Numbered from the stretch's first letter, positions 3,089 through 60,300 are shown. The stretch is 64,000 nucleotides of DNA from an uncultured Alphaproteobacteria bacterium (GCA_944393195.1 CALXZG010000002.1:33646-97645); one strand, 5' to 3'. Numbers and translations are program-made. The notes: generated by a model not told the origin, from the letters alone.

Positions 3089-4009
3089 ATGCCGACACCC
3101 CGTCATCACATTAACGGCTGGCTGATTATTGATAAGCCCTATTCTCTCGGCTCAACCACCGTTGTCGCCCGACTGAAAAAAGCCCTTTCCCCGACTAAAA
3201 TAGGCCACGCCGGAACGTTGGATCCCTTGGCCTCGGGCATCTTACCCATTGCGTTGGGACAGGCTACCCGCCTCATCCCCTATGTCATGGACGGTCAAAA
3301 AACATACGAATTTCAAATCACTTGGGGTGCCGAAACCACGACGGACGATAGCGAAGGAACGATTACCCAAACAACCGCCGACCGACCGACTGAGGCTGAA
3401 ATTAAAGCCGCCCTGCCCGCCTTCATCGGTACCATCAATCAATTACCACCGGCTTATTCTGCCCTCAAAATCAACGGGCATCGCGCTTATGATTTAGCCC
3501 GTAGCGGTCGGGAAGTTTCCCTTGCACCCCGTCCCATCCGTATTGATACGCTGGAATTACTCCGCACCACAACCGATACCGCCGATTTTCGTGTCTCTTG
3601 CGGCAAAGGCACCTACGTTCGCGCTCTGGGACGGGATATCGGTCGCCGCCTCGGTTGCCTCGGCTATATTACCCACCTGCGCCGCACCGCTTGCGGTCCC
3701 TTTACGCTCGCCGACGCGGTTCAGCTGGATACGTTGACCACACCCCCGCTCCCCGATCCTATTCCCCTGCTACCGTTGGAAAAAGCCCTTAACCATATGC
3801 CAACCTTAACCGTTCCGCCCGCCGAAGCCCATCGCCTGAGCCAAGGCCAACGACTGGCCCTTAAACCATTGTCCGCCGGCCTTTCCCGCCCCGTTTCCGA
3901 AGATGAAGTAGCGTGCCTTCTGTGCGCCGGTCATGTGCTGGGCTTAGTCAAAATCGCCCATAATACCATCCACCCCTATCGCATTTTTGCGGATAACATT
4001 TCCTCTTGA
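3089..4009 (+). CDS. truB: tRNA pseudouridine-55 synthase
   Basis: 306 aa. Contains the catalytic GHAGTLDPLASGILPIALGQATR motif. Confidence 0.95.
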   Translation: MPTPRHHINGWLIIDKPYSLGSTTVVARLKKALSPTKIGHAGTLDPLASGILPIALGQATRLIPYVMDGQKTYEFQITWGAETTTDDSEGTITQTTADRPTEAEIKAALPAFIGTINQLPPAYSALKINGHRAYDLARSGREVSLAPRPIRIDTLELLRTTTDTADFRVSCGKGTYVRALGRDIGRRLGCLGYITHLRRTACGPFTLADAVQLDTLTTPPLPDPIPLLPLEKALNHMPTLTVPPAEAHRLSQGQRLALKPLSAGLSRPVSEDEVACLLCAGHVLGLVKIAHNTIHPYRIFADNISS

Positions 4010-20574: not shown

Positions 20575-20656
20575 TTACATTGAAATTACAAAATACATTA
20601 AATAATTACAAAGTAATTACATTTTTAACACAGAATTGTAATTACAAAGTTATTAC
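20572..20656 (+). promoter_or_regulatory. second array of three TAATTAC-N4-(T/A)A(A/T)TTAC boxes
   Basis: Pairs at 20572/20583, 20603/20614 and 20639/20650, with the same 7+4+7 architecture as 8120-8197. The array lies directly upstream of, or overlapping, the annotated start of the M23 peptidase gene. Confidence 0.5.
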
Positions 20657-21509
20657 AGCGCGATGTTTTATATATACATTGTGCTTACTTTTTTTATTGT
20701 TCATACATTTACCTGTGCGGGCCTTTGAATTATTGACACCGGTTCGGGAAGGACAGCTTGTCTATGGGCGGTTGGCACCAGATGAGCGGTTGTACGTGGA
20801 CGGTCAATTGTTGCACAATGGTGAACAATCGGACAGGTATCAGATTCCCGTGAATGAGGATGGTTTATTTGTTTTAGGTATTCCGCAAGATGCAGCACAG
20901 CATTTGACAGTTTTTTTGGAAAACAAACAAGGTATTGTCCCAAAACACATAGCGGTTGATCGGGTTCATTGGAAAGAAGATATTGTCAATGGGTTACCGG
21001 CAGGCAAAGTATCCCCGGATACGAAAGCACAAAAGCGTATCGTGGATGAAGCGTTGTTATTACAGAAAGCGCGTCAATCATCCGACGGGGCCTTTTTTCC
21101 GGAAACGTGGATTCTTCCTGTTGCACAATATACCAGAATATCAAGTCCTTTTGGATCTCGGCGGGTATTAAACGGGACTAAAAAAGCGGGACATAGCGGT
21201 ACGGATTTTGCAGCACCGACGGGAACGGCGGTGGTTGCTCCGGCCGACGGTCGGGTAAAGGTGGTTCATCCGGATATGTTTTATACCGGTAAGACAATTT
21301 TAATTGACCACGGACAAGGTGTTTTTTCCAGCTATTCTCATTTGAGTGAGATTAACGTTACTGAAAATCAAGTTGTTAAGCAGGGGGATGTTATTGGTGC
21401 CGTGGGGATGACGGGGCGATCGACCGGACCGCATTTACATTTTGCCGTGACGTGGTTTGGGGTGCGGGTTAATCCGGAATTTTTGTTTGAAGATGCATTG
21501 AAAAAGTAA
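20580..21509 (+). CDS. M23-family metallopeptidase (LytM/EnvC-like), secreted
   Basis: Contains HSGTDFAAP, SYSHLS and GPHLHF motifs. The true start is probably internal (for example TTG at 20679, giving the signal peptide CLLFLLFIHLPVRA), because the first about 30 codons are the AATTAC array. Confidence 0.85.
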   Translation: MKLQNTLNNYKVITFLTQNCNYKVITARCFIYTLCLLFLLFIHLPVRAFELLTPVREGQLVYGRLAPDERLYVDGQLLHNGEQSDRYQIPVNEDGLFVLGIPQDAAQHLTVFLENKQGIVPKHIAVDRVHWKEDIVNGLPAGKVSPDTKAQKRIVDEALLLQKARQSSDGAFFPETWILPVAQYTRISSPFGSRRVLNGTKKAGHSGTDFAAPTGTAVVAPADGRVKVVHPDMFYTGKTILIDHGQGVFSSYSHLSEINVTENQVVKQGDVIGAVGMTGRSTGPHLHFAVTWFGVRVNPEFLFEDALKK

Positions 21510-21528
21510 TCGTCAGACTTTTATATCA

Positions 21529-21551
21529 CCCGCCCGATCGGGCGGGTTTTA
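21529..21551 (+). terminator. rho-independent terminator of the M23 peptidase gene
   Basis: Palindrome CCCGCCCGATCGGGCGGG followed by TTTT. Confidence 0.65.
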
Positions 21552-21731
21552 TTGTTATTGATACGATCGTGAAAAAAACAGTATTTATTTTTGTTTTATT
21601 TTCAAATAGATATTTTTTTTGTGTCACAAGACAGAAAAAAGAATTCCCAGTATAAAACGTATATAAGTGTTACATATTAAAATGTAACAGTAATTTTGGA
21701 AAGATGTTGTTTTTCAATATGTTATTTAACG

Positions 21732-21899
21732 AGTGTAACAATTTAATGTTCCTTTTTTTGTTATACTTTTTGCACCTTACACGACTTTTAACTAAATGAA
21801 CAGGAACCCTTTATAATATAAATATTTTCTTCTTGCTTTACCTTTCTTTTTGTGATACATAATTTTATAACATTTTAAGGAACATTAAATTGTTACACT
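21732..21899. repeat. perfect 23-bp inverted repeats (21732-21754 and 21877-21899) flanking a 122-bp AT-rich segment; part of the gene-less copy of the pilin-family 5' module
   Basis: agtgtaacaatttaatgttcctt and aaggaacattaaattgttacact are exact reverse complements. The enclosed segment is homologous to 51436-51533, which is upstream of gene 51585. Confidence 0.85.
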
Positions 21900-22050
21900 T
21901 CATTTGACATCTGTTTGATTAATAATCTATATGTGAAGTGCCCCAAAATCGGAAAAAAGTAAAATAGGGACAGATTCGCGGATTAATGCCGTGATACCGT
22001 TTTTATTGTATGGCGATATGTAAAAAAATCCCCGCGCCGGCGGGGATAAT
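21900..22050 (-). promoter_or_regulatory. conserved 5' module of the pilin-like family (orphan copy, minus orientation)
   Basis: The reverse complement aligns with 58183-58312 and with the reverse complement of 42392-42505 (tttttacatatcgcc ... atcaaacagatgtcaaatgaa). It is preceded by the hairpin terminator of ORF 22085-22480. Confidence 0.7.
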
Positions 22051-22084
22051 GTAAAAGAGAAAAGATAACGGGGATGTAAAAGGG

Positions 22085-22480
22085 TTATTCGCTTTTTTCG
22101 CGTTGTATTTCCCGGTTTAATTTTTCCCGATAATAATGTCGATATAAAACATGCCCGGCGATCGCCTCCCGAACATTAGATACTGTTCCGACCAAAGCAG
22201 CCAGACCGAATAACCCGCTAACCGCAATCAACGCCGTTGCCGTATCCGAATCGATTTCTTTTTGGCGGTGTTTCGCGGCCGCATTGGTGGCAACCATGAC
22301 AGACGCCGCCAAAATCCCCGAAAACACAAAAGCCGCTACGCCGGGGACAAGAGAATATGTCCGATAAAACTTTGTCCAATAGGCGATTGATGTATCACTC
22401 TTCCGCGGAATACGGGGCAAAGTTTCTTGTTCTTTATCGTTTAATATCAAAGATGTAATCAGGTTTTTGGATGAACTCAT
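22085..22480 (-). CDS. hypothetical two-helix membrane protein
   Basis: 131-aa ORF with two hydrophobic segments. A terminator hairpin (TCCCCGCCGGCGCGGGGA plus a T-run) lies downstream. Confidence 0.5.
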   Translation of the reverse strand: MSSSKNLITSLILNDKEQETLPRIPRKSDTSIAYWTKFYRTYSLVPGVAAFVFSGILAASVMVATNAAAKHRQKEIDSDTATALIAVSGLFGLAALVGTVSNVREAIAGHVLYRHYYREKLNREIQREKSE

Positions 22481-41490: not shown

Positions 41491-42357
41491 TCATCGACAG
41501 AGGGCAAATAGTAGTAGTCGACGTCCCAAACGGTTGAACCCGATCGCACCTGAACTACTACCCTGTATATAATACGAACTACATCCACTCAACTTCGTAC
41601 TTGTCCAATAAGGCTTACCTGTCGTGTGTGCCCATCCCGAACAGCTACCATAATAACTGTTTGCCTTAGCCGCCGCCAATTCTTCCGCCGTACACCCGTC
41701 CGTTAGCGGTGCTAAACTCTTCCCAAGTGCTTGACAGAAGTTCTCTGCTGCATGATAGGACATAGATCCTGTTGATGTTGTGCATGTTGTTCCGTTAATC
41801 TCTACTGTTGCAGTACTCATATTTGTGCACGTCCCAATCACCACATCACAACTATAAGTATTTTTACAATATTGATTATCCCCCGTACAATCATCATTTG
41901 TCATACATTTATTTGTTCCTAATGCGGATACACAGGTACCTATACCGGAACTATATTGACACTTCTCGTCTTTTCCACAACATTTGTCACCGCATGTAAC
42001 GCCATCCGGACAATAGACGCAATAACGAGGATCGTATCCCCCGATTTGAGCACCTGTACATCTCTCACATGTATCCTCTATATCTCCCGTATGCGTTTCG
42101 ACTGGATTTCCTTCTGTTGGACAAGCAATACAGGACGAAGACGCATATTTATTATAAAACTCACCTTCTTCACATTCCGGATAAAAATCTGTCACACATT
42201 CCCCTGTTGATAATCGATATTCATTCTCCCCACACTCTTGTTCTTCCGACTCACCATCTCCATCCCCTGAAATTTGGGAGCCGACCAACGCATTATGGAA
42301 AGCAAATAATATCTCGTTATCCTCTTGCTTTGTTTTCCCTTTTATGATACACAACAT
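41491..42357 (-). pseudogene. 5'-truncated member of the pilin-like/Cys-rich/lectin-like family (candidate silent cassette)
   Basis: The ORF begins inside the family 5' module. It joins the family alignment at EILFAFHNAL (EMLFAFANTL in the intact genes). It therefore lacks the RBS, the prepilin leader and the whole N-domain. The Cys-rich and YHAAENFC...ALCR parts are intact. Confidence 0.7.
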
Positions 42358-42596
42358 CTATAACAAAAAAATGTACATTAAATTGTTACACTTCATTTGA
42401 CATCTGTTTGATTAATAATCTATATGTGAACTTCCCCAAAATCAAAAAAAGTAAAATAGGGATAGATTCGCGGACTAATGCCGTGAATAATGTTTTTGTG
42501 TGGTGATATGTAAAAACGCCCTGTTATCACAAAAACTTTCCTGCCCGACAAAAAAGCGTCCCGAAACGGAACGCTTTCTTAACATATCGGCTACGT
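42358..42596 (-). promoter_or_regulatory. family 5' module including the recA terminator; inverted copy of 58005-58346
   Basis: The reverse complement aligns with the region downstream of rpsT apart from a roughly 110-nt repeat insertion there. It contains the palindromic site gtgtaacaatttaatgtacatttttttgttatag (42358-42391). Confidence 0.75.
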
Positions 42597-46280: not shown

Positions 46281-46550
46281 TTAGCGACACAGGGCGTTGA
46301 CGGCGCCGCCGCTCCAACCGACAGACCCGACCGCGCCTGACCAGGGATATACATAATACGAAGCACATCCACTCAATTTTGTTGCTGTCCAATAATGGTT
46401 AGAAAGACTACTATTCAACCATCCACTACAACTACCATAATAATTATTTGCCTTAACTGTTGCTAATTCTTCCGCCGTACACCCGTCTGTCACCGATACC
46501 AAACTCTTCCCGAGGGCTTGACAGAAATTAACTGCTGCATGATACGGCAT
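46281..46550 (-). pseudogene. isolated C-terminal (lectin-like) fragment of the family
   Basis: Encodes PYHAAVNFCQALGKSLVSVTDGCTAEELATVKANNYYGSCSGW...GAVGSVGWSGGAVNALCR. Family homology stops abruptly at about 46550. Confidence 0.8.
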
Positions 46551-47090
46551 ATAATTCGTTGGTTCCGGGGGAGAGGGGAGAAGGTAATGACGAATCCGAA
46601 GTTGAAGTGTGTGAAGAGGGTGAATATCGGTTATCGACAGGAGAGTGTGTGATAGATTCACATCCGGAATGTGGTGATGGAGAGTTTTATAATAAATGGA
46701 TATCTTCTTCCTGTATTGCGTGTCCAACGGAAGGAAATCCGGTCGAAATTAGTGTATCGGATGTGGAAGATAGTTGTGAAAAATGTGCGGGGGCGCAGTA
46801 TGGTGGGTATTATCCTAATTATTGCGTCTATTGTCCATCCGGTGTTGTGTGTGGTGATCAATGTTGTGGGGAAGGACAAATGTGTCAATATAGTTCCGGT
46901 ACCTATACCTGTGTATCGGAATTAGGTGACGGCGAATGTTGGACAAATGATGATTGTGCCGGAGCCAATCAATATTGTCAAAATGGTGGAAGTTGTGAAG
47001 TGACGATTGGGACGTGTGAAACGATCAGTAGTACAGCTGTGATAATTAACGGAAAAGAGTATACGGCTTCAACGGATTATGTATCTTACC
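46551..47090 (+). pseudogene. isolated middle (Cys-rich) fragment of the family on the opposite strand
   Basis: Encodes NSLVPGERGEGNDESEVEVCEEGEYRLSTGECV...EYTASTDYVSYQAA. It abuts the minus-strand C-terminal fragment head-to-head at 46550/46551. It ends at the YHAA-equivalent point, where it joins a repeat unit through the shared string ggcagcgg. Confidence 0.8.
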
Positions 47091-47232
47091 AGGCAGCGGG
47101 AGTCGCCGCCGGCAAGCGGATGTTGGAATTGGAATGGAGTAAGATGGTCATGAGACCCCCGATCAAGTCGGGGATGACGGATTACTTATGGGGTCGGGGA
47201 TGACGGACTAATGATAAGGGAATGGCGGAAAA
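47091..47232 (+). repeat. distal repeat block (ggcagcgggagtcgccgccggcaagcggatgttggaattgga...catgagacccccgatcaagtcggggatgacgg...)
   Basis: Same orientation as 60117-60230 and inverted relative to 45905-46025. Confidence 0.8.
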
Positions 47233-51269: not shown

Positions 51270-51380
51270 TTTTAACAGCCTCCATCGAGGCTGTTTTTTT
51301 ATGGAAAATCCGGTAAATTGAGACTATTTTTGAAAAAAATGCCTTTTCGGAGAAAGGGATGTTTTTGATATGGTTGATAA

Positions 51381-51584
51381 ATCAAACAGATGTCAAATGA
51401 AGTGTAACAATTTAATGTTCATTAAAATGTTATAAAATTATGTATCACAAAAGTGAAAACAAAGCAAGAAGAAAATATTTATATTATAAAGAGTTCCTGT
51501 TCATTTGGTTAAAAGTCATGTAAGGTGCAAAAAGTATAACAAAAAAGGGAACATTTTTTTGTTATAGTTGAAAAGGAGCGATAA
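51381..51584 (+). promoter_or_regulatory. 5' control region of pilin-like gene A
   Basis: Conserved block atcaaacagatgtcaaatgaagtgtaacaatttaatgt (possible ATGTCA-17-TAATGT promoter). Palindromic site 1 lies at 51402-51435 and palindromic site 2 at 51534-51567, the latter directly before the AAAGGAG RBS. Confidence 0.5.
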
Positions 51585-52994
51585 ATGACTGAAACAAAAA
51601 ACAAAAACGGGAAAAGTGGTGTGTATCAAAATAGTGATTTAGGGGCATCGTGTGTGTGTCATAAGACCCCCGATCAGGTCGGGGATGACGGTTTAACAGT
51701 AGGGAGTGCGTGTTCAAAGATCCCCGCTTTCGCAGGGATGACGGGTAGTAACCGCGGGGAGCGGGGACGGAGCATGGTTGAGATGTTGGGCGTTCTGGCG
51801 GTCATGGGCGTATTGTCGATCGGCGGTGTGGCCGGGTATCGGTATGCGATCGATAAAATGAATGCGAATGACATTATCAATGAAGTGAAAAAAAGAGCCG
51901 TGACGGCGAGTCAACAACGCATCTTGGGACACGATATTAATTTATCGGAATACGGGGATAATGGTCGGATTAAGGGAATTCATGCCGTTACAGCGACAAA
52001 CGATTATGCGGGGGATAAAGGGTTCTTTGCGTTGACGGTATCAAATATACCGCAACGGGTATGCGATGACATTCTGAAACAGGATTGGAATATGCCGGTG
52101 GAAACAGCGGTCGGAGGTGTTGTGGTTGATGATGATACAGCCTGCGCCGCCGGGGATAATGAAATGTTGTTTGCGTTTGCGAATACGTTGGACAGCTCTC
52201 TGGTTCCGGGAGAAGGGGGAGAAGATGACGGGGATGAAGAGGAAGTACAGGAATGCGCCGAGGGTGAATATCGGTTATCGACAGGGGAATGTGTGACGGA
52301 TTCACATCCGGAATGTGGTGATGGGGAGTTTTATAATGGACTCACGGATTCTTGTACAGCCTGTCCGACGGAAGGAAATCCTGTCCATATTTATTCGTCG
52401 GATATGGAAGATACGTGTGAAAAATGTACGGGGTCGCGGTATGGTGGACCTTATCCCAGCTATTGTGTCTATTGTCCGGATGGTGTTACCTGTGGTGATC
52501 AATGTTGTGGGGAAGACGAAATGTGTCAACGCGATACAAGTTCTTGGCCATATACATTTACCTGTGTCTCTACATTAGGGGAAGGAGAATGTTTGACGAA
52601 TGATGATTGTGTAGATAATCAATATTGTCGGAATAGTTATGGTTGTGAAGTGACGGTTGGGACATGTACGGATATTAGTAGTACGCCGGTAGAGATTAAC
52701 GGAACAGAATACACAGCGTCAACGGGTTCTATGCTGTATCATGCGGCGGAGAATTTCTGTGATGCGCTTGGGAAGCGTTTAGCACCGGTGACAGACGGAT
52801 GTACGGCGGAAGAATTGGCAGCGGTTAAAGCAAATGGTTCAGGTAGTTGTTCGGGATGGGCACAGACGACGGGTGAGCGTTATTGGACAGCAACCAAATT
52901 AAGCGGATGCGCTTCGTATTATGTATGGAGTAGTAGTTCAGGCGCGGTCGGGTCTGTCGGTTGGAACGGCGGCAACTACGCCCTGTGTCGCTAA
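51585..52994 (+). CDS. modular type-IV-pilin-like protein with Cys-rich repeats and lectin-like C-terminal module (copy A; leader expanded by a repeat insertion)
   Basis: 469 aa. The class III signal-like core G-RSMVEMLGVLAVMGVLSIGGVAGY lies at aa 61-85. It is followed by a conserved head domain, an acidic linker, a region with about 25 Cys, and a C-terminal YHAAENFC...W...ALCR. Confidence 0.8.
   Translation: MTETKNKNGKSGVYQNSDLGASCVCHKTPDQVGDDGLTVGSACSKIPAFAGMTGSNRGERGRSMVEMLGVLAVMGVLSIGGVAGYRYAIDKMNANDIINEVKKRAVTASQQRILGHDINLSEYGDNGRIKGIHAVTATNDYAGDKGFFALTVSNIPQRVCDDILKQDWNMPVETAVGGVVVDDDTACAAGDNEMLFAFANTLDSSLVPGEGGEDDGDEEEVQECAEGEYRLSTGECVTDSHPECGDGEFYNGLTDSCTACPTEGNPVHIYSSDMEDTCEKCTGSRYGGPYPSYCVYCPDGVTCGDQCCGEDEMCQRDTSSWPYTFTCVSTLGEGECLTNDDCVDNQYCRNSYGCEVTVGTCTDISSTPVEINGTEYTASTGSMLYHAAENFCDALGKRLAPVTDGCTAEELAAVKANGSGSCSGWAQTTGERYWTATKLSGCASYYVWSSSSGAVGSVGWNGGNYALCR
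51612..51770 (+). repeat. 159-nt in-frame insertion of palindromic mini-repeats inside the leader of gene A
   Basis: Absent from copy B (MTEIKMENG-LSMVE). It contains agacccccgatcaggtcggggatgacgg and agatccccgctttcgcagggatgacgg, both found in intergenic copies elsewhere in the window. Confidence 0.8.
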
Positions 52995-58038: not shown

Positions 58039-58481
58039 GTTGGGCAGGAAAGTTTTTGTGATAACAGGGCGTTGTTATTTTTCCGTCATCCCTGCGCAGG
58101 CGGGGATTTTTGGACGCACAACCACACCTTTAAAAGACCCCCGATCAGGTCGGGGGTGACAGGGTACTTGTGGATCGGGGATTTTTTTACATATCGCCAT
58201 ACAATAGAAACGGTATTCACGGCATTAGTCCGTGAATCTGTCCCTATTTTACTTTTTTCTGATTTTGGGTCACTCCCAATCTAAATGATTTATCAAACAG
58301 ATGTCAAATGAAGTGTAACAATTTAATGTACCTTAAAATGTTACAGTTTTTATAACATAATCAGGAATGCGATGCAAGTCCTTTTTTATTAAGAATTAAT
58401 CGGTTATCGATTTGTCATTTTTTGTCCAAACTGTAACACAAAAGGGTACATTTTTGTGTTACAGTTCGAAAGGAGTATTAA
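58039..58481 (+). promoter_or_regulatory. 5' control region of pilin-like gene B
   Basis: Conserved module 58183-58346, with a roughly 110-nt mini-repeat insertion at 58072-58182. Site 1 lies at 58313-58346. Site 2, ctgtaacacaaaagggtacatttttgtgttacag, lies at 58431-58464 (13-bp arms), followed by the AAAGGAG RBS. Confidence 0.5.
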
Positions 58482-59741
58482 ATGACTGAAATCAAAATGG
58501 AAAATGGTCTGAGTATGGTTGAGATGTTGGGTGTTCTGGCGGTGGCGGGTGTCCTGTCGATTGGCGGTGTGGCCGGATATCGGTATGCGATTGATAAAAT
58601 GAATGCGAATGACATTATCAACGAAGTGCGGAAACGGGCCGTGACGGCAAGTCAACAACGCATCTTGGGACACGATATTAATTTATCGGAATACGGGGAT
58701 AATGGCCGGATTAAAGGAATTCATGCCGTTACAGCGACAAACGATTATGCTGGGGATAAAGGGTTCTTTGCGTTAACGGTATCAGCAGTCCCGCAACGGG
58801 TATGTGATGACATCCTGAAACAGGATTGGGCAATGCCGGTAGAAACCGCCGTCGGTGGTGTTGTGGTCGATGATGATACCGCCTGCGCCGAAGGGGATAA
58901 TGAGATGTTGTTTGCGTTTGCGAATACGTTGGATAATTCGTTGGTCCCGGGAGAAGGGGGAGGAGAGAACGGAGATGAATCGGAAGTACAGGAATGCGCC
59001 GAGGGCGAATATTGGTCATCAAGTTTAGAAACATGTGTGACAGACCCGCATACGGAGTGCGCGGATGGGGAGTTTTATAATGGATATACAAACTCCTGTA
59101 CGGCTTGTCCAACAGATGGAAATGCCGTTCCAAATGATTCATTAGATATGGAAGATACGTGTGAAAAATGCGTAGGGTCGCGGTATGGTGGATCTCATCC
59201 CGGCTATTGTGTCTATTGTCCGGATGGCGTTACCTGTGGCGATCAATGTTGTGGCGAAGGACAAATGTGTCAACGTAGTGGTCCTTATCCGTATACATTT
59301 ACCTGTGTCTCTGCATTAGGGACAAATGAATGTATGACGAATGATGATTGTACGGGAGCAAATCAATATTGCCAGAATGATTCTGGTTGTAGTGCGACAA
59401 ATGGGACGTGTCAAACGATCAGTAGTACGACGGTGACGATTAACGAAAAAACATACACAGCATCGACAGATCGTATGTCGTATCATGCGGCAGAGAACTT
59501 CTGTGATGCGCTTGGGAAAAAATTAGCACCGGTGACAGACGGGTGTACATCGGAAGAATTGGCAGCGGTTAAAGCAAACAATTATTATGGCAGTTGCACA
59601 GGATGGGCACACACGACGGGTAGGTATTATTGGACAAGTACGAAGATAAGCGGGTGTCATTCGTATTATGTAAGCAATAGCAGTTCAGGCGCGGTCGGGT
59701 CTGTCCATCCGTTCGTCGGCTACCACGCCCTTTGTCGCTAA
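58482..59741 (+). CDS. modular type-IV-pilin-like protein with Cys-rich repeats and lectin-like C-terminal module (copy B, canonical)
   Basis: 419 aa. The N-terminus MTEIKMENG-LSMVEMLGVLAVAGVLSIGGVAGYRY has Gly at -1, Glu at +5 and a hydrophobic helix. The downstream architecture matches copy A. Confidence 0.85.
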   Translation: MTEIKMENGLSMVEMLGVLAVAGVLSIGGVAGYRYAIDKMNANDIINEVRKRAVTASQQRILGHDINLSEYGDNGRIKGIHAVTATNDYAGDKGFFALTVSAVPQRVCDDILKQDWAMPVETAVGGVVVDDDTACAEGDNEMLFAFANTLDNSLVPGEGGGENGDESEVQECAEGEYWSSSLETCVTDPHTECADGEFYNGYTNSCTACPTDGNAVPNDSLDMEDTCEKCVGSRYGGSHPGYCVYCPDGVTCGDQCCGEGQMCQRSGPYPYTFTCVSALGTNECMTNDDCTGANQYCQNDSGCSATNGTCQTISSTTVTINEKTYTASTDRMSYHAAENFCDALGKKLAPVTDGCTSEELAAVKANNYYGSCTGWAHTTGRYYWTSTKISGCHSYYVSNSSSGAVGSVHPFVGYHALCR

Positions 59742-60300
59742 GGTTCCCGCTTTTTTAATATCTCCTTTACCTATTTAATTATTTGTGTCGGGGCATTTAA
59801 GAGCCCCGACACGGGCAAAGAGGTCATTATGGCCGCCCCCGCTTTCCCCGCGGGGGTGGCCGTGCGCGTTTTTTATAAAGGGATGGAGTGCGTGTCATGA
59901 GATCCTCGGGTCAAGCCCAAGGATGACAGTTTTATAATAAGGGATTGTGTTAAAAGATTCCCGCTTGCGCGGGAATGACGAGATATTTATATGGGATGAC
60001 GTAGGAGGGGAGGAGTGAGGTGGTTGAAAGATCCTCGCTTACGCAAGGATACCGCGCAAGAAAAAACAATCCGGTGAATTGTTTTTTCGCGTAAGGCAAT
60101 GAAACACCTCGCGCCAAGGCAGCGGAAGTCGCCGTCGGCAAGCGGATGTTGGAATTGGAAAGGTGTGTGCGTCATGAGACCCCCGATCAAGTCGGGGATG
60201 ACGGATTACTTATGGGGTCGGGGATGACGGATTACTTATGGGGTCGGGGATGACGGGGTATTTATAGGGGGGGGTGACGGAGGCAGGGAACGAGGTGTGG
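59742..60300 (+). repeat. 3' flank and dense repeat array, including 2.3 tandem copies of a 26-nt unit at 60197-60256
   Basis: Contains the hairpin gtgtcggggc...gccccgacac, the roughly 130-nt unit at 60030-60160, catgagacccccgatcaagtcggggatgacgg, and tandem gatgacggattacttatggggtcggg units. Confidence 0.8.

Follow-up and report, generated by a model that had tools for sequence, protein, structure and literature searches.

A gene-less 168-bp inverted-repeat element as a probable relic of crossover between two pilin-like-gene switches in an uncultured gut alphaproteobacterium

The 21.7-kb element and the family modules of the window

The DNA analysed here is a 64-kb stretch (hereafter the window) from an uncultured alphaproteobacterium, and at 21.7 kb it holds a locus on which two genes converge, an M23 peptidase gene (20580-21509) and a gene for a 131-aa protein (22085-22480, minus strand). 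No open reading frame of at least 40 aa was found between the peptidase stop codon (21509) and the 131-aa gene. This intergenic region contains an element of 168 bp, bounded by an exact 23-bp inverted repeat, AGTGTAACAATTTAATGTTCCTT, whose arms are 122 bp apart (Table 1); a repeat finder extends the inverted repeat to 34 nt at 88% identity. The repeat had been reported in the initial annotation and is real, given the exact match and a search for the 23-mer with up to 3 mismatches, which returned 5 occurrences in the window and none in 100 dinucleotide shuffles. The locus has the layout of an inverton in that inverted repeats flank a short non-coding segment (100-122 bp).

The element is one of four copies of a module found in the window, at 21.7, 42.3, 51.4 and 58.3 kb. 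In the orientation of the gene family to which it belongs, the module consists of an upstream flank, a first palindromic site (site 1), a segment of ~100 bp, a second site (site 2), a ribosome-binding site (RBS) and the ATG. Two copies precede full-length genes, one (42.3 kb) is truncated, and the copy at 21.7 kb, on the minus strand, is the gene-less version of the family's 5' module that the initial annotation had recognized: the intact units at 51.4 and 58.3 kb have genes, whereas at 21.7 kb there is no downstream gene to switch. Complementarity of 91% was found both between the stretch 21736-21932, comprising the interior and right flank, and 51368-51564 and between 21868-21994 and 58217-58343; the right flank also matches 42359-42450. 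The interior, which had been described as homologous to the segment upstream of gene 51585, is indeed 91-92% identical to it and constitutes a distinct copy. Comparison of its A-type segment with 51435-51534 gave a local score of 158 forward and 22 reverse, both copies having the same orientation relative to site 1. The possibility that the B-type segment of the 58.3-kb unit is a flipped A-type segment was rejected, as no homology was found in either orientation.

Table 1. Coordinates of features at the 21.7-kb locus and of the other family modules in the window
Feature	Position	Strand	Basis or remark
M23 peptidase terminator hairpin, also start of flank X	21528..21547	+	Terminator scan; a similar hairpin begins the homologous L010 flank
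Flank X, of the type found before site 1 of a plus-oriented family module	21550..21731	+	Homology to L010
Small separate palindrome TGTTACATATTAAAATGTAACA, heptamers in order opposite to the sites	21668..21689	.	Sequence and heptamer scan
Left repeat arm	21732..21754	+	Exact 23-bp match
Left 32-bp site, hybrid TGTAACAATTTAATG-TT-CCTTTTTTTGTTATA, putative crossover dinucleotide 21749-21750	21734..21765	+	Comparison with sites 51403-51434 and 51535-51566
A-type inter-site segment, putatively invertible	21766..21865	-	Local score against 51.4-kb copy
Best sigma-70-like match in segment, TTAACT-18-TATAAT, 10/12, consensus match only	21788..21817	+	Points to site 1 and flank 21
Right 32-bp site, intact site 1 of minus-oriented module; plus strand TATAACATTTTAAGG-AA-CATTAAATTGTTACA, centre 21881-21882	21866..21897	-	
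Right repeat arm	21877..21899	-	Exact 23-bp match
Flank 21, near and far upstream flank of minus-oriented module	21900..22047	-	Common to 42.4-kb and 58.2-kb copies
Truncated module	42342..42516	-	Flank, single site 42390-42359, ~40 nt of A-type segment fused to 5'-truncated family gene 41491-42357
Intact A-type reference module	51368..51572	+	Near flank, site 1 51403-51434 (centre TT), site 2 51535-51566 (centre AA), then RBS-ATG of full-length gene 51585-52994
Intact B-type reference module	58176..58467	+	Far and near flank, site 1 58314-58345 (TA), unrelated 86-bp segment, site 2 58432-58463 (TA), full-length gene 58482-59741

Each repeat arm lies within a 32-bp imperfect palindrome composed of two 15-bp half-sites around a 2-bp centre, an architecture (15 + 2 + 15) common to all copies. 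The pattern T[GA]TAACA-N18-TGTTA[CT]A occurs at 7 sites in the 64 kb, and all 7 are inside the four family modules. At 51.4 kb, site 1 reads TGTAACAATTTAATG-TT-CATTAAAATGTTATA and site 2, at 51.5 kb, TATAACAAAAAAGGG-AA-CATTTTTTTGTTATA, so that the centres of A-type units are reverse complements of each other; the 58.3-kb unit has the same centre at both sites. The outer arm of site 1, AGTGTAACAATTTAATGT, is invariant over 18 nt in five of five window copies. The two outer arms of an intact locus match at 16 of 23 positions at 51.4 kb and 17 of 23 at 58.3 kb, in agreement with the initial annotation. Site pairs 118-145 bp apart, centre to centre, stand before family genes both in the window and in related gut Alphaproteobacteria. 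More distant metagenome-assembled genomes (MAGs) share the design with species-specific arms (TTGCAATTAAAGG-TA-CGTTTAATTGCAA, TATAACAAAAACG-AT-CGTTTTTGTTATA and TGTAAAAATTAAATG-CC-CATTAAATTTTTACA); there, site pairs are 130-145 bp apart and the second site is located immediately before the RBS.

The family proteins carry a type IV pilin-like signal (G/RSMVEMLGVLAV, with Glu at +5), followed by a conserved domain and a cysteine-rich region, and no Pfam or NCBIfam match was obtained for them. The protein database holds 320 homologues, one of which is labelled a PulG-like pseudopilin by JGI. A scan of representative genomes, a set to which the window's own species does not belong, identified the relatives as MAGs of uncultured gut Alphaproteobacteria from human, rabbit and roe deer samples. 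Family genes of the MAG SGB_4864 (L014, L015, L017 and L025) lack palindromic sites; their promoter region is fixed and of the TTGACA type, and a GC-rich hairpin precedes the RBS, so not every member of the family has the switch.

The window also contains scrambled family pseudogenes or cassettes at 41491-42357 (minus strand) and 46281-47203. The latter has its C-terminal part (46281-46727, minus strand) inverted beside its middle part (46559-47203, plus strand), and there are no palindromic sites at the junctions of either. GC-rich REP-like palindromic elements, such as GTCATAAGACCCCCGATCAGGTCGGGGATGACGG, were seen at 51658-51790, 47147-47215, 58129-58197 and 60171-60265. Such elements interrupt the 5' part of the coding sequence of gene 51585-52994 without shifting its frame, producing a longer pre-pilin leader, and similar insertions are present in the homologues P0011 and P0078.

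A hybrid site between two upstream flanks

The left site of the 21.7-kb element is chimeric. To the left of its centre stands the outer arm of a site 1, AATTTAATG, and to the right the reverse complement of a site-2 inner arm, CCTTTTTTTGTTATACT, and next come the A-type segment, also as its reverse complement, and an intact site 1 accompanied by its usual flank. The parental sites share only ATGTTCC (21746-21752), so the point at which one gives way to the other lies within 7 bp around the centre. On the outer side of the hybrid site, flank X is homologous in the forward direction to L010 9690-9848, a stretch of a related assembly that precedes site 1 of a different family gene. A blastn alignment of the two covers 54 nt at 83% (E = 9e-7), and local scores are 58 in the forward orientation and 23 in the reverse, with shuffles reaching at most 32. 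The two flanks are alike also in the terminator hairpin and in the bases adjacent to the site; the small palindrome at 21668-21689 is absent from the L010 flank. On the opposite side, flank 21 shows homology to the flanks at 42 kb and 58 kb and extends to the terminator of the 131-aa gene (22047-22028).

A single segment with an upstream flank on either side, the two in opposing orientation, is the expected product of a crossover at the centres of site 1 of a plus-oriented unit and site 2 of a minus-oriented unit, both of which read TT on the plus strand. The initial annotation had described the distal site as the hybrid left by crossover with an inverted site 1, and both the join at the core and the forward homology of flank X to the L010 upstream flank bear this out. 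It had also held that the distal arm was replaced by an inverted copy of the proximal arm; of this, the hybrid site stands, but special homogenisation does not, since both arms are site-1 outer halves, invariant over 18 nt, from which a perfect 23-bp repeat arises automatically. The reciprocal hybrid site that had been anticipated, TTATAACATTTTAAGGAACATTTTTTTGTTATAG, was looked for and is not in the 64-kb window. An inversion between distant units would leave such a reciprocal site; the direct route is deletion of the DNA between two units that converge. Since Hin-type invertases tend not to delete DNA between directly oriented sites, a fusion of this kind would be atypical for that class. In another sample and assembly (L004), a complete B-type unit comes after the same 131-aa gene and extends through site 2, where the contig ends; since the unit is complete to that point, a family gene has probably been kept at this locus in other strains.

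Site pairs in related genomes and alternative readings

In relatives, homologous inter-site segments were found in both orientations. Comparisons between paralogous loci of one MAG, SGB_6327, with shuffle maxima of 19-22, gave local scores of 15 forward and 125 reverse for L026 versus L029a (shuffle maximum 19), 12 and 56 for L026 versus L028, and 17 and 63 for L026 versus L044. Similarly, L030 and L039 scored 25-31 forward and 62-63 reverse against L042. In these inverted segments the inner arms move with the segment and the outer arms are fixed in place. Locus L037 has a solo site composed of a site-1 outer arm and a site-2 outer arm, and this site is a deletion product. The centres of paired sites were also compared: asymmetric ones are always reverse complements (TT/AA in the window and L010, GG/CC in L016, GT/AC in L016b and L020, TC/GA in L053), symmetric pairs TA/TA and AT/AT occur too, and no exception to the rule was found among the pairs examined. 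A single lineage, or even a single genome, can hold the dinucleotides TT/AA, TA, GG/CC, GT/AC and TC/GA. In the reference sequence of phage Mu, gixL (TTATCCAAAACC-TC-GGTTTACAGGAA) and gixR (...AAACC-GA-GGTTT...) likewise have reverse-complement centres, partner sites being opposite in polarity as they are in L053 (TC/GA) and the window (TT/AA).

A recombinase gene adjoins one site pair. L042 3596-4198 encodes a 200-aa serine invertase of the Mpi family (Pfam Resolvase and HTH_7; NCBIfam NF009949 at 271.4 bits, just under the cut-off of 272) that is ~30-33% identical to Gin and Hin, and the gene lies 1.2 kb from a same-core site pair preceding a glycosyltransferase gene. In tblastn searches of the window and all loci with five recombinases (Hin, gamma-delta resolvase, XerD, FimB and the L042 invertase), only the L042 gene was matched; no recombinase gene was found in the 64-kb window, for which the initial annotation had noted the absence of an invertase, or in 37 of the 38 related genome loci. 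The core of the window's sites, AATGTWCATT, differs from the L042-type core, AACGTACGTT, and the AAACGTACGT core of the L029, L030 and L039 sites matches the Mpi repeat consensus, which we take to be ARACGTWCGT. The L042-type invertase, encoded in a rabbit-gut alphaproteobacterial MAG, has thousands of homologues with 72-82% identity in gut metagenomes, a hint that this type of invertase has recently spread horizontally, perhaps with Bacteroidales as donor or recipient. A scan of JGI metagenomes for GTGTAACAATTTAATGTWC returned two chance matches, both without a second half-site.

Taken from sequence comparison, the inversions in relatives, the solo site, the covariation of the centres and the L042 invertase indicate that the paired palindromes are putative recombination sites and not operators. 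The sites would be equally compatible with a tyrosine recombinase that has a 6-bp overlap. We consider it unlikely that the palindromes are operators of a dimeric transcription factor acting on the pilin-like genes, each pair flanking or overlapping a promoter and perhaps looping the DNA, and that the 21.7-kb copy is a decayed promoter in which illegitimate recombination or gene conversion re-created the distal operator. Such a factor would account for sites that are palindromic, species-specific and constant in position, site 2 coming immediately before the RBS, and for the lack of a nearby recombinase in most loci; moreover, site 2 coincides with a sigma-70-like TTGCAA-17-TACAAT in SGB_6327 loci, and the site-2 outer arms of the window, TGTTATAGT, resemble an extended -10. 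However, it leaves unexplained the inverted homologous segments with exchanged inner arms, the solo-site deletion product of L037, the strict central reverse complementarity across four dinucleotide types, and a junction confined to the 7-bp shared core with unrelated flanks on either side, and it has to contend with the Mpi-family invertase beside one site pair.

The proposal of the initial annotation that the element is an inverton receives indirect support from what is seen in relatives, namely both orientations, complementary dinucleotides and an adjacent Mpi-family invertase, whereas the uniform orientation of all A-type copies speaks against it. No flipped A-type or B-type segment was seen among the copies compared from the window's species, the same orientation relative to site 1 being shared by the A-type copies at 21.7 kb, 51.4 kb, L010 and L011 and by the B-type copies at 58.3 kb, L004 and L050. 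A look-up of the gene upstream of the 51.4-kb unit returned only the same arrangement.

Two further observations concern the sites of individual genes. In a related species, L053 contains an additional site, CTGTAAAAAAATG-GT-CAATAAAAACG, 3' of the family gene (~3830-3860), and in L023 (9770-9800) the left half of the gene-proximal site and its flank are the reverse complement of such a 3' flank, which suggests whole-gene inversions or shufflon-like exchange. For gene P0008, represented in two samples (L010 9950-9965 versus L011 75-125), the L010 copy has lost its site-2 inner arm through a 33-bp deletion between AAAAAAG repeats, which would lock the switch if the sites are recombination sites.

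We propose, with a probability of roughly 0.6, that the 21.7-kb element is an orphan fused inverton, the relic of a recombinase-mediated crossover between two switches of the pilin-like family. A normal unit would be a small inverton before a type IV pilin-like cysteine-rich gene, with half-sites that bind the recombinase and a 2-bp centre at which crossover takes place; site 1 and site 2 have dinucleotides of opposite polarity (TT and AA), an arrangement that would give inversion. At 21.7 kb, two such units would have become joined at the crossover position, the plus-oriented unit supplying its site-1 outer half together with flank X and the minus-oriented unit beside the 131-aa gene supplying its site-2 inner half, through a deletion between convergent units or through a larger inversion. 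The event would have removed the family gene or genes and left two site-1 outer arms facing each other as the perfect 23-bp repeat. The enzyme, presumably active in this genome, would be a serine invertase of the Mpi/Hin type whose gene lies elsewhere in the genome. With both 21.7-kb sites intact and opposite in polarity, flipping of the 100-bp segment may still be possible, although the segment would have no gene under its control.

Quite unlikely, in our estimate, is that the element persists as a functional switch, its flipping redirecting an internal promoter into flank 21 or flank X so that a small RNA is made, or transcripts antisense to the convergent genes for the 131-aa protein and the M23 peptidase. 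Besides the intact sites of opposite polarity, this would accord with the internal promoter-like element, which aims into flank 21, and with the conservation of that flank among copies, including an outward TTGACA (21904-21909) beside site 1 and a hairpin with a T-run (21976-22004) ~75 nt further on. However, sigma-70-like calls number 2 where 3.3 are expected by chance, and the flanks are accounted for as the usual upstream flanks of family units. The motif TTAAC[CT]-18-TATAAT is present in both A-type copies (21.7 and 51.4 kb) and is directed away from the family-gene side, so that, if it acts as a promoter, both copies would be OFF. At gathering score, Rfam matches in the window were confined to three tRNAs, and nothing significant was found in 21500-22100, a permissive search included. 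RNAalifold on the conserved flank gave essentially no covariation (covariation term +1.36); its two compensatory pairs are both in the terminal hairpin, and each is broken in other sequences.

The combination of TTGACA and hairpin recurs in the conserved upstream flanks, at 21904-22004 (plus strand), 58160-58311 (minus strand) and 42393-42545 (plus strand), and on this pattern the flank could encode a divergent small RNA. In SGB_6327, the sites themselves double as the TTGCAA-17-TACAAT motif, the -35 element lying in the inner arm and the -10 element in the outer one (L028 9813-9841; L044 9847-9875 and 9743-9715; L026 9905-9932). One end of the SGB_6327 segment is a long A-tract, so the switch could move an UP-like element and not a whole promoter.

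Contigs break repeatedly inside family modules in several assemblies. Independent assemblies end inside site 2 (contig starts of L054, L055 and L056, and also of L013, L018 and L019), and the start of L055, TG-GA-C, coincides exactly with the first base that the two orientations of site 2 have in common. Contig ends of this kind fit the pattern expected of an orientation bubble or population heterogeneity and are also explained by the repeats. At L007 1980-2152 (ERZ24773523, coverage 3.3x), window positions 51386 and 21946 meet, strand unchanged, at an 8-bp microhomology, TTTGATTT, and no module separates them; this represents either a circle-type or duplication-type junction or a chimera. Although the repeated modules, the many contig breaks and this odd junction in a low-coverage assembly could raise the suspicion of a false join of two modules during metagenome assembly, such an origin of the 21.7-kb element is highly improbable: its junction occurs at 100% identity in two records, the window and ERZ28613992 scaffold_343 (which ends elsewhere), its junction k-mers are unique, and its interior is 91-92%, not 100%, identical to the 51.4-kb copy. 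Least credible is a MITE, to which the size of 168 bp, the terminal inverted repeats of 23-34 bp and the absence of coding capacity would be suited, as there is no target-site duplication (flanks ...atttaacg and tcatttga...), homology with other copies continues ~150 bp past the right repeat, and the same pair of ends is present in no other copy.

Relation to known switches and significance

The orphan fused inverton and the units around it can be set beside several characterized systems. Mpi of Bacteroides fragilis is a serine recombinase that inverts 13 unlinked regions (PMC4747536), and Bacteroides repeats are described as hix-like in the title of Patrick et al. (2003). As in the Mpi system, short, putatively invertible segments between inverted repeats are positioned upstream of surface-structure genes, with many units per genome and the recombinase unlinked to most of them, and in the relative L042 an Mpi-family invertase lies beside one unit. 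In contrast to that system, the host here is an uncultured gut alphaproteobacterium, the targets are pilin-like proteins and not polysaccharide loci, the segments are not as long (118-145 bp between centres), and the core of the window's sites is AATGTWCATT. The 21.7-kb copy differs further in having no downstream gene, and no invertase was found in the 64-kb window.

With the sites of Hin, Gin, Cin and Pin, those described here share the form of an imperfect palindrome with A-tract half-sites around a 2-bp crossover position, which is the form expected of serine-invertase sites. The hix and gix sites are 26 bp long, lie 1-3 kb apart and act with a Fis-bound enhancer (PMC3798978), whereas the sites of the window are 32 bp long and ~130 bp apart. 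Rearrangements tied to type IV pilin-like proteins are also known from shufflons and pilin-gene inversions (R64 Rci and Moraxella Piv), in which, as proposed here, recombination between units makes new junctions. In those systems the crossover occurs within coding sequence and protein segments are swapped, whereas the sites here are upstream of the start codon; the possible 3' site that would extend the comparison with shufflons is restricted to relatives (L053 and L023). A promoter-sized segment between inverted repeats before a pilus-type gene also recalls fimS. That switch has 9-bp repeats, a 314-bp segment and adjacent fimB and fimE genes; here the repeats are hix-like palindromes, and tblastn found no tyrosine recombinase in any locus.

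A broader picture can be drawn tentatively, and we hold it to be possible but below even odds: a genome-wide network of ~130-bp Mpi-type invertons would phase-vary a large family of pilin-like cysteine-rich surface proteins, the individual switches being insulated from one another by private dinucleotides, with occasional cross-reaction between switches of the same dinucleotide, which would delete or invert the genes in between and leave orphans. The covarying centres suggest a simple means by which many switches under one enzyme could remain independent. The units also explain the assembly breaks at these loci. For analysis of orientation, the intact units at 51.4 and 58.3 kb are the targets, and the orphan would serve as a control without selection on a downstream gene.

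Invertons themselves are already known, and the main interest of the orphan is in what it reveals of the surrounding system. If our reading is correct, phase variation by a master invertase and its invertons, best known from Bacteroides, would also operate in uncultured gut Alphaproteobacteria, where it would act on pilin-like surface proteins, and the 21.7-kb orphan would be direct sequence evidence of cross-reaction between the sites of different switches, with loss of genes. Should the network exist, the invertase would also drive turnover of the gene family and rearrangement of the chromosome, and the orphan would be a molecular fossil of that process.
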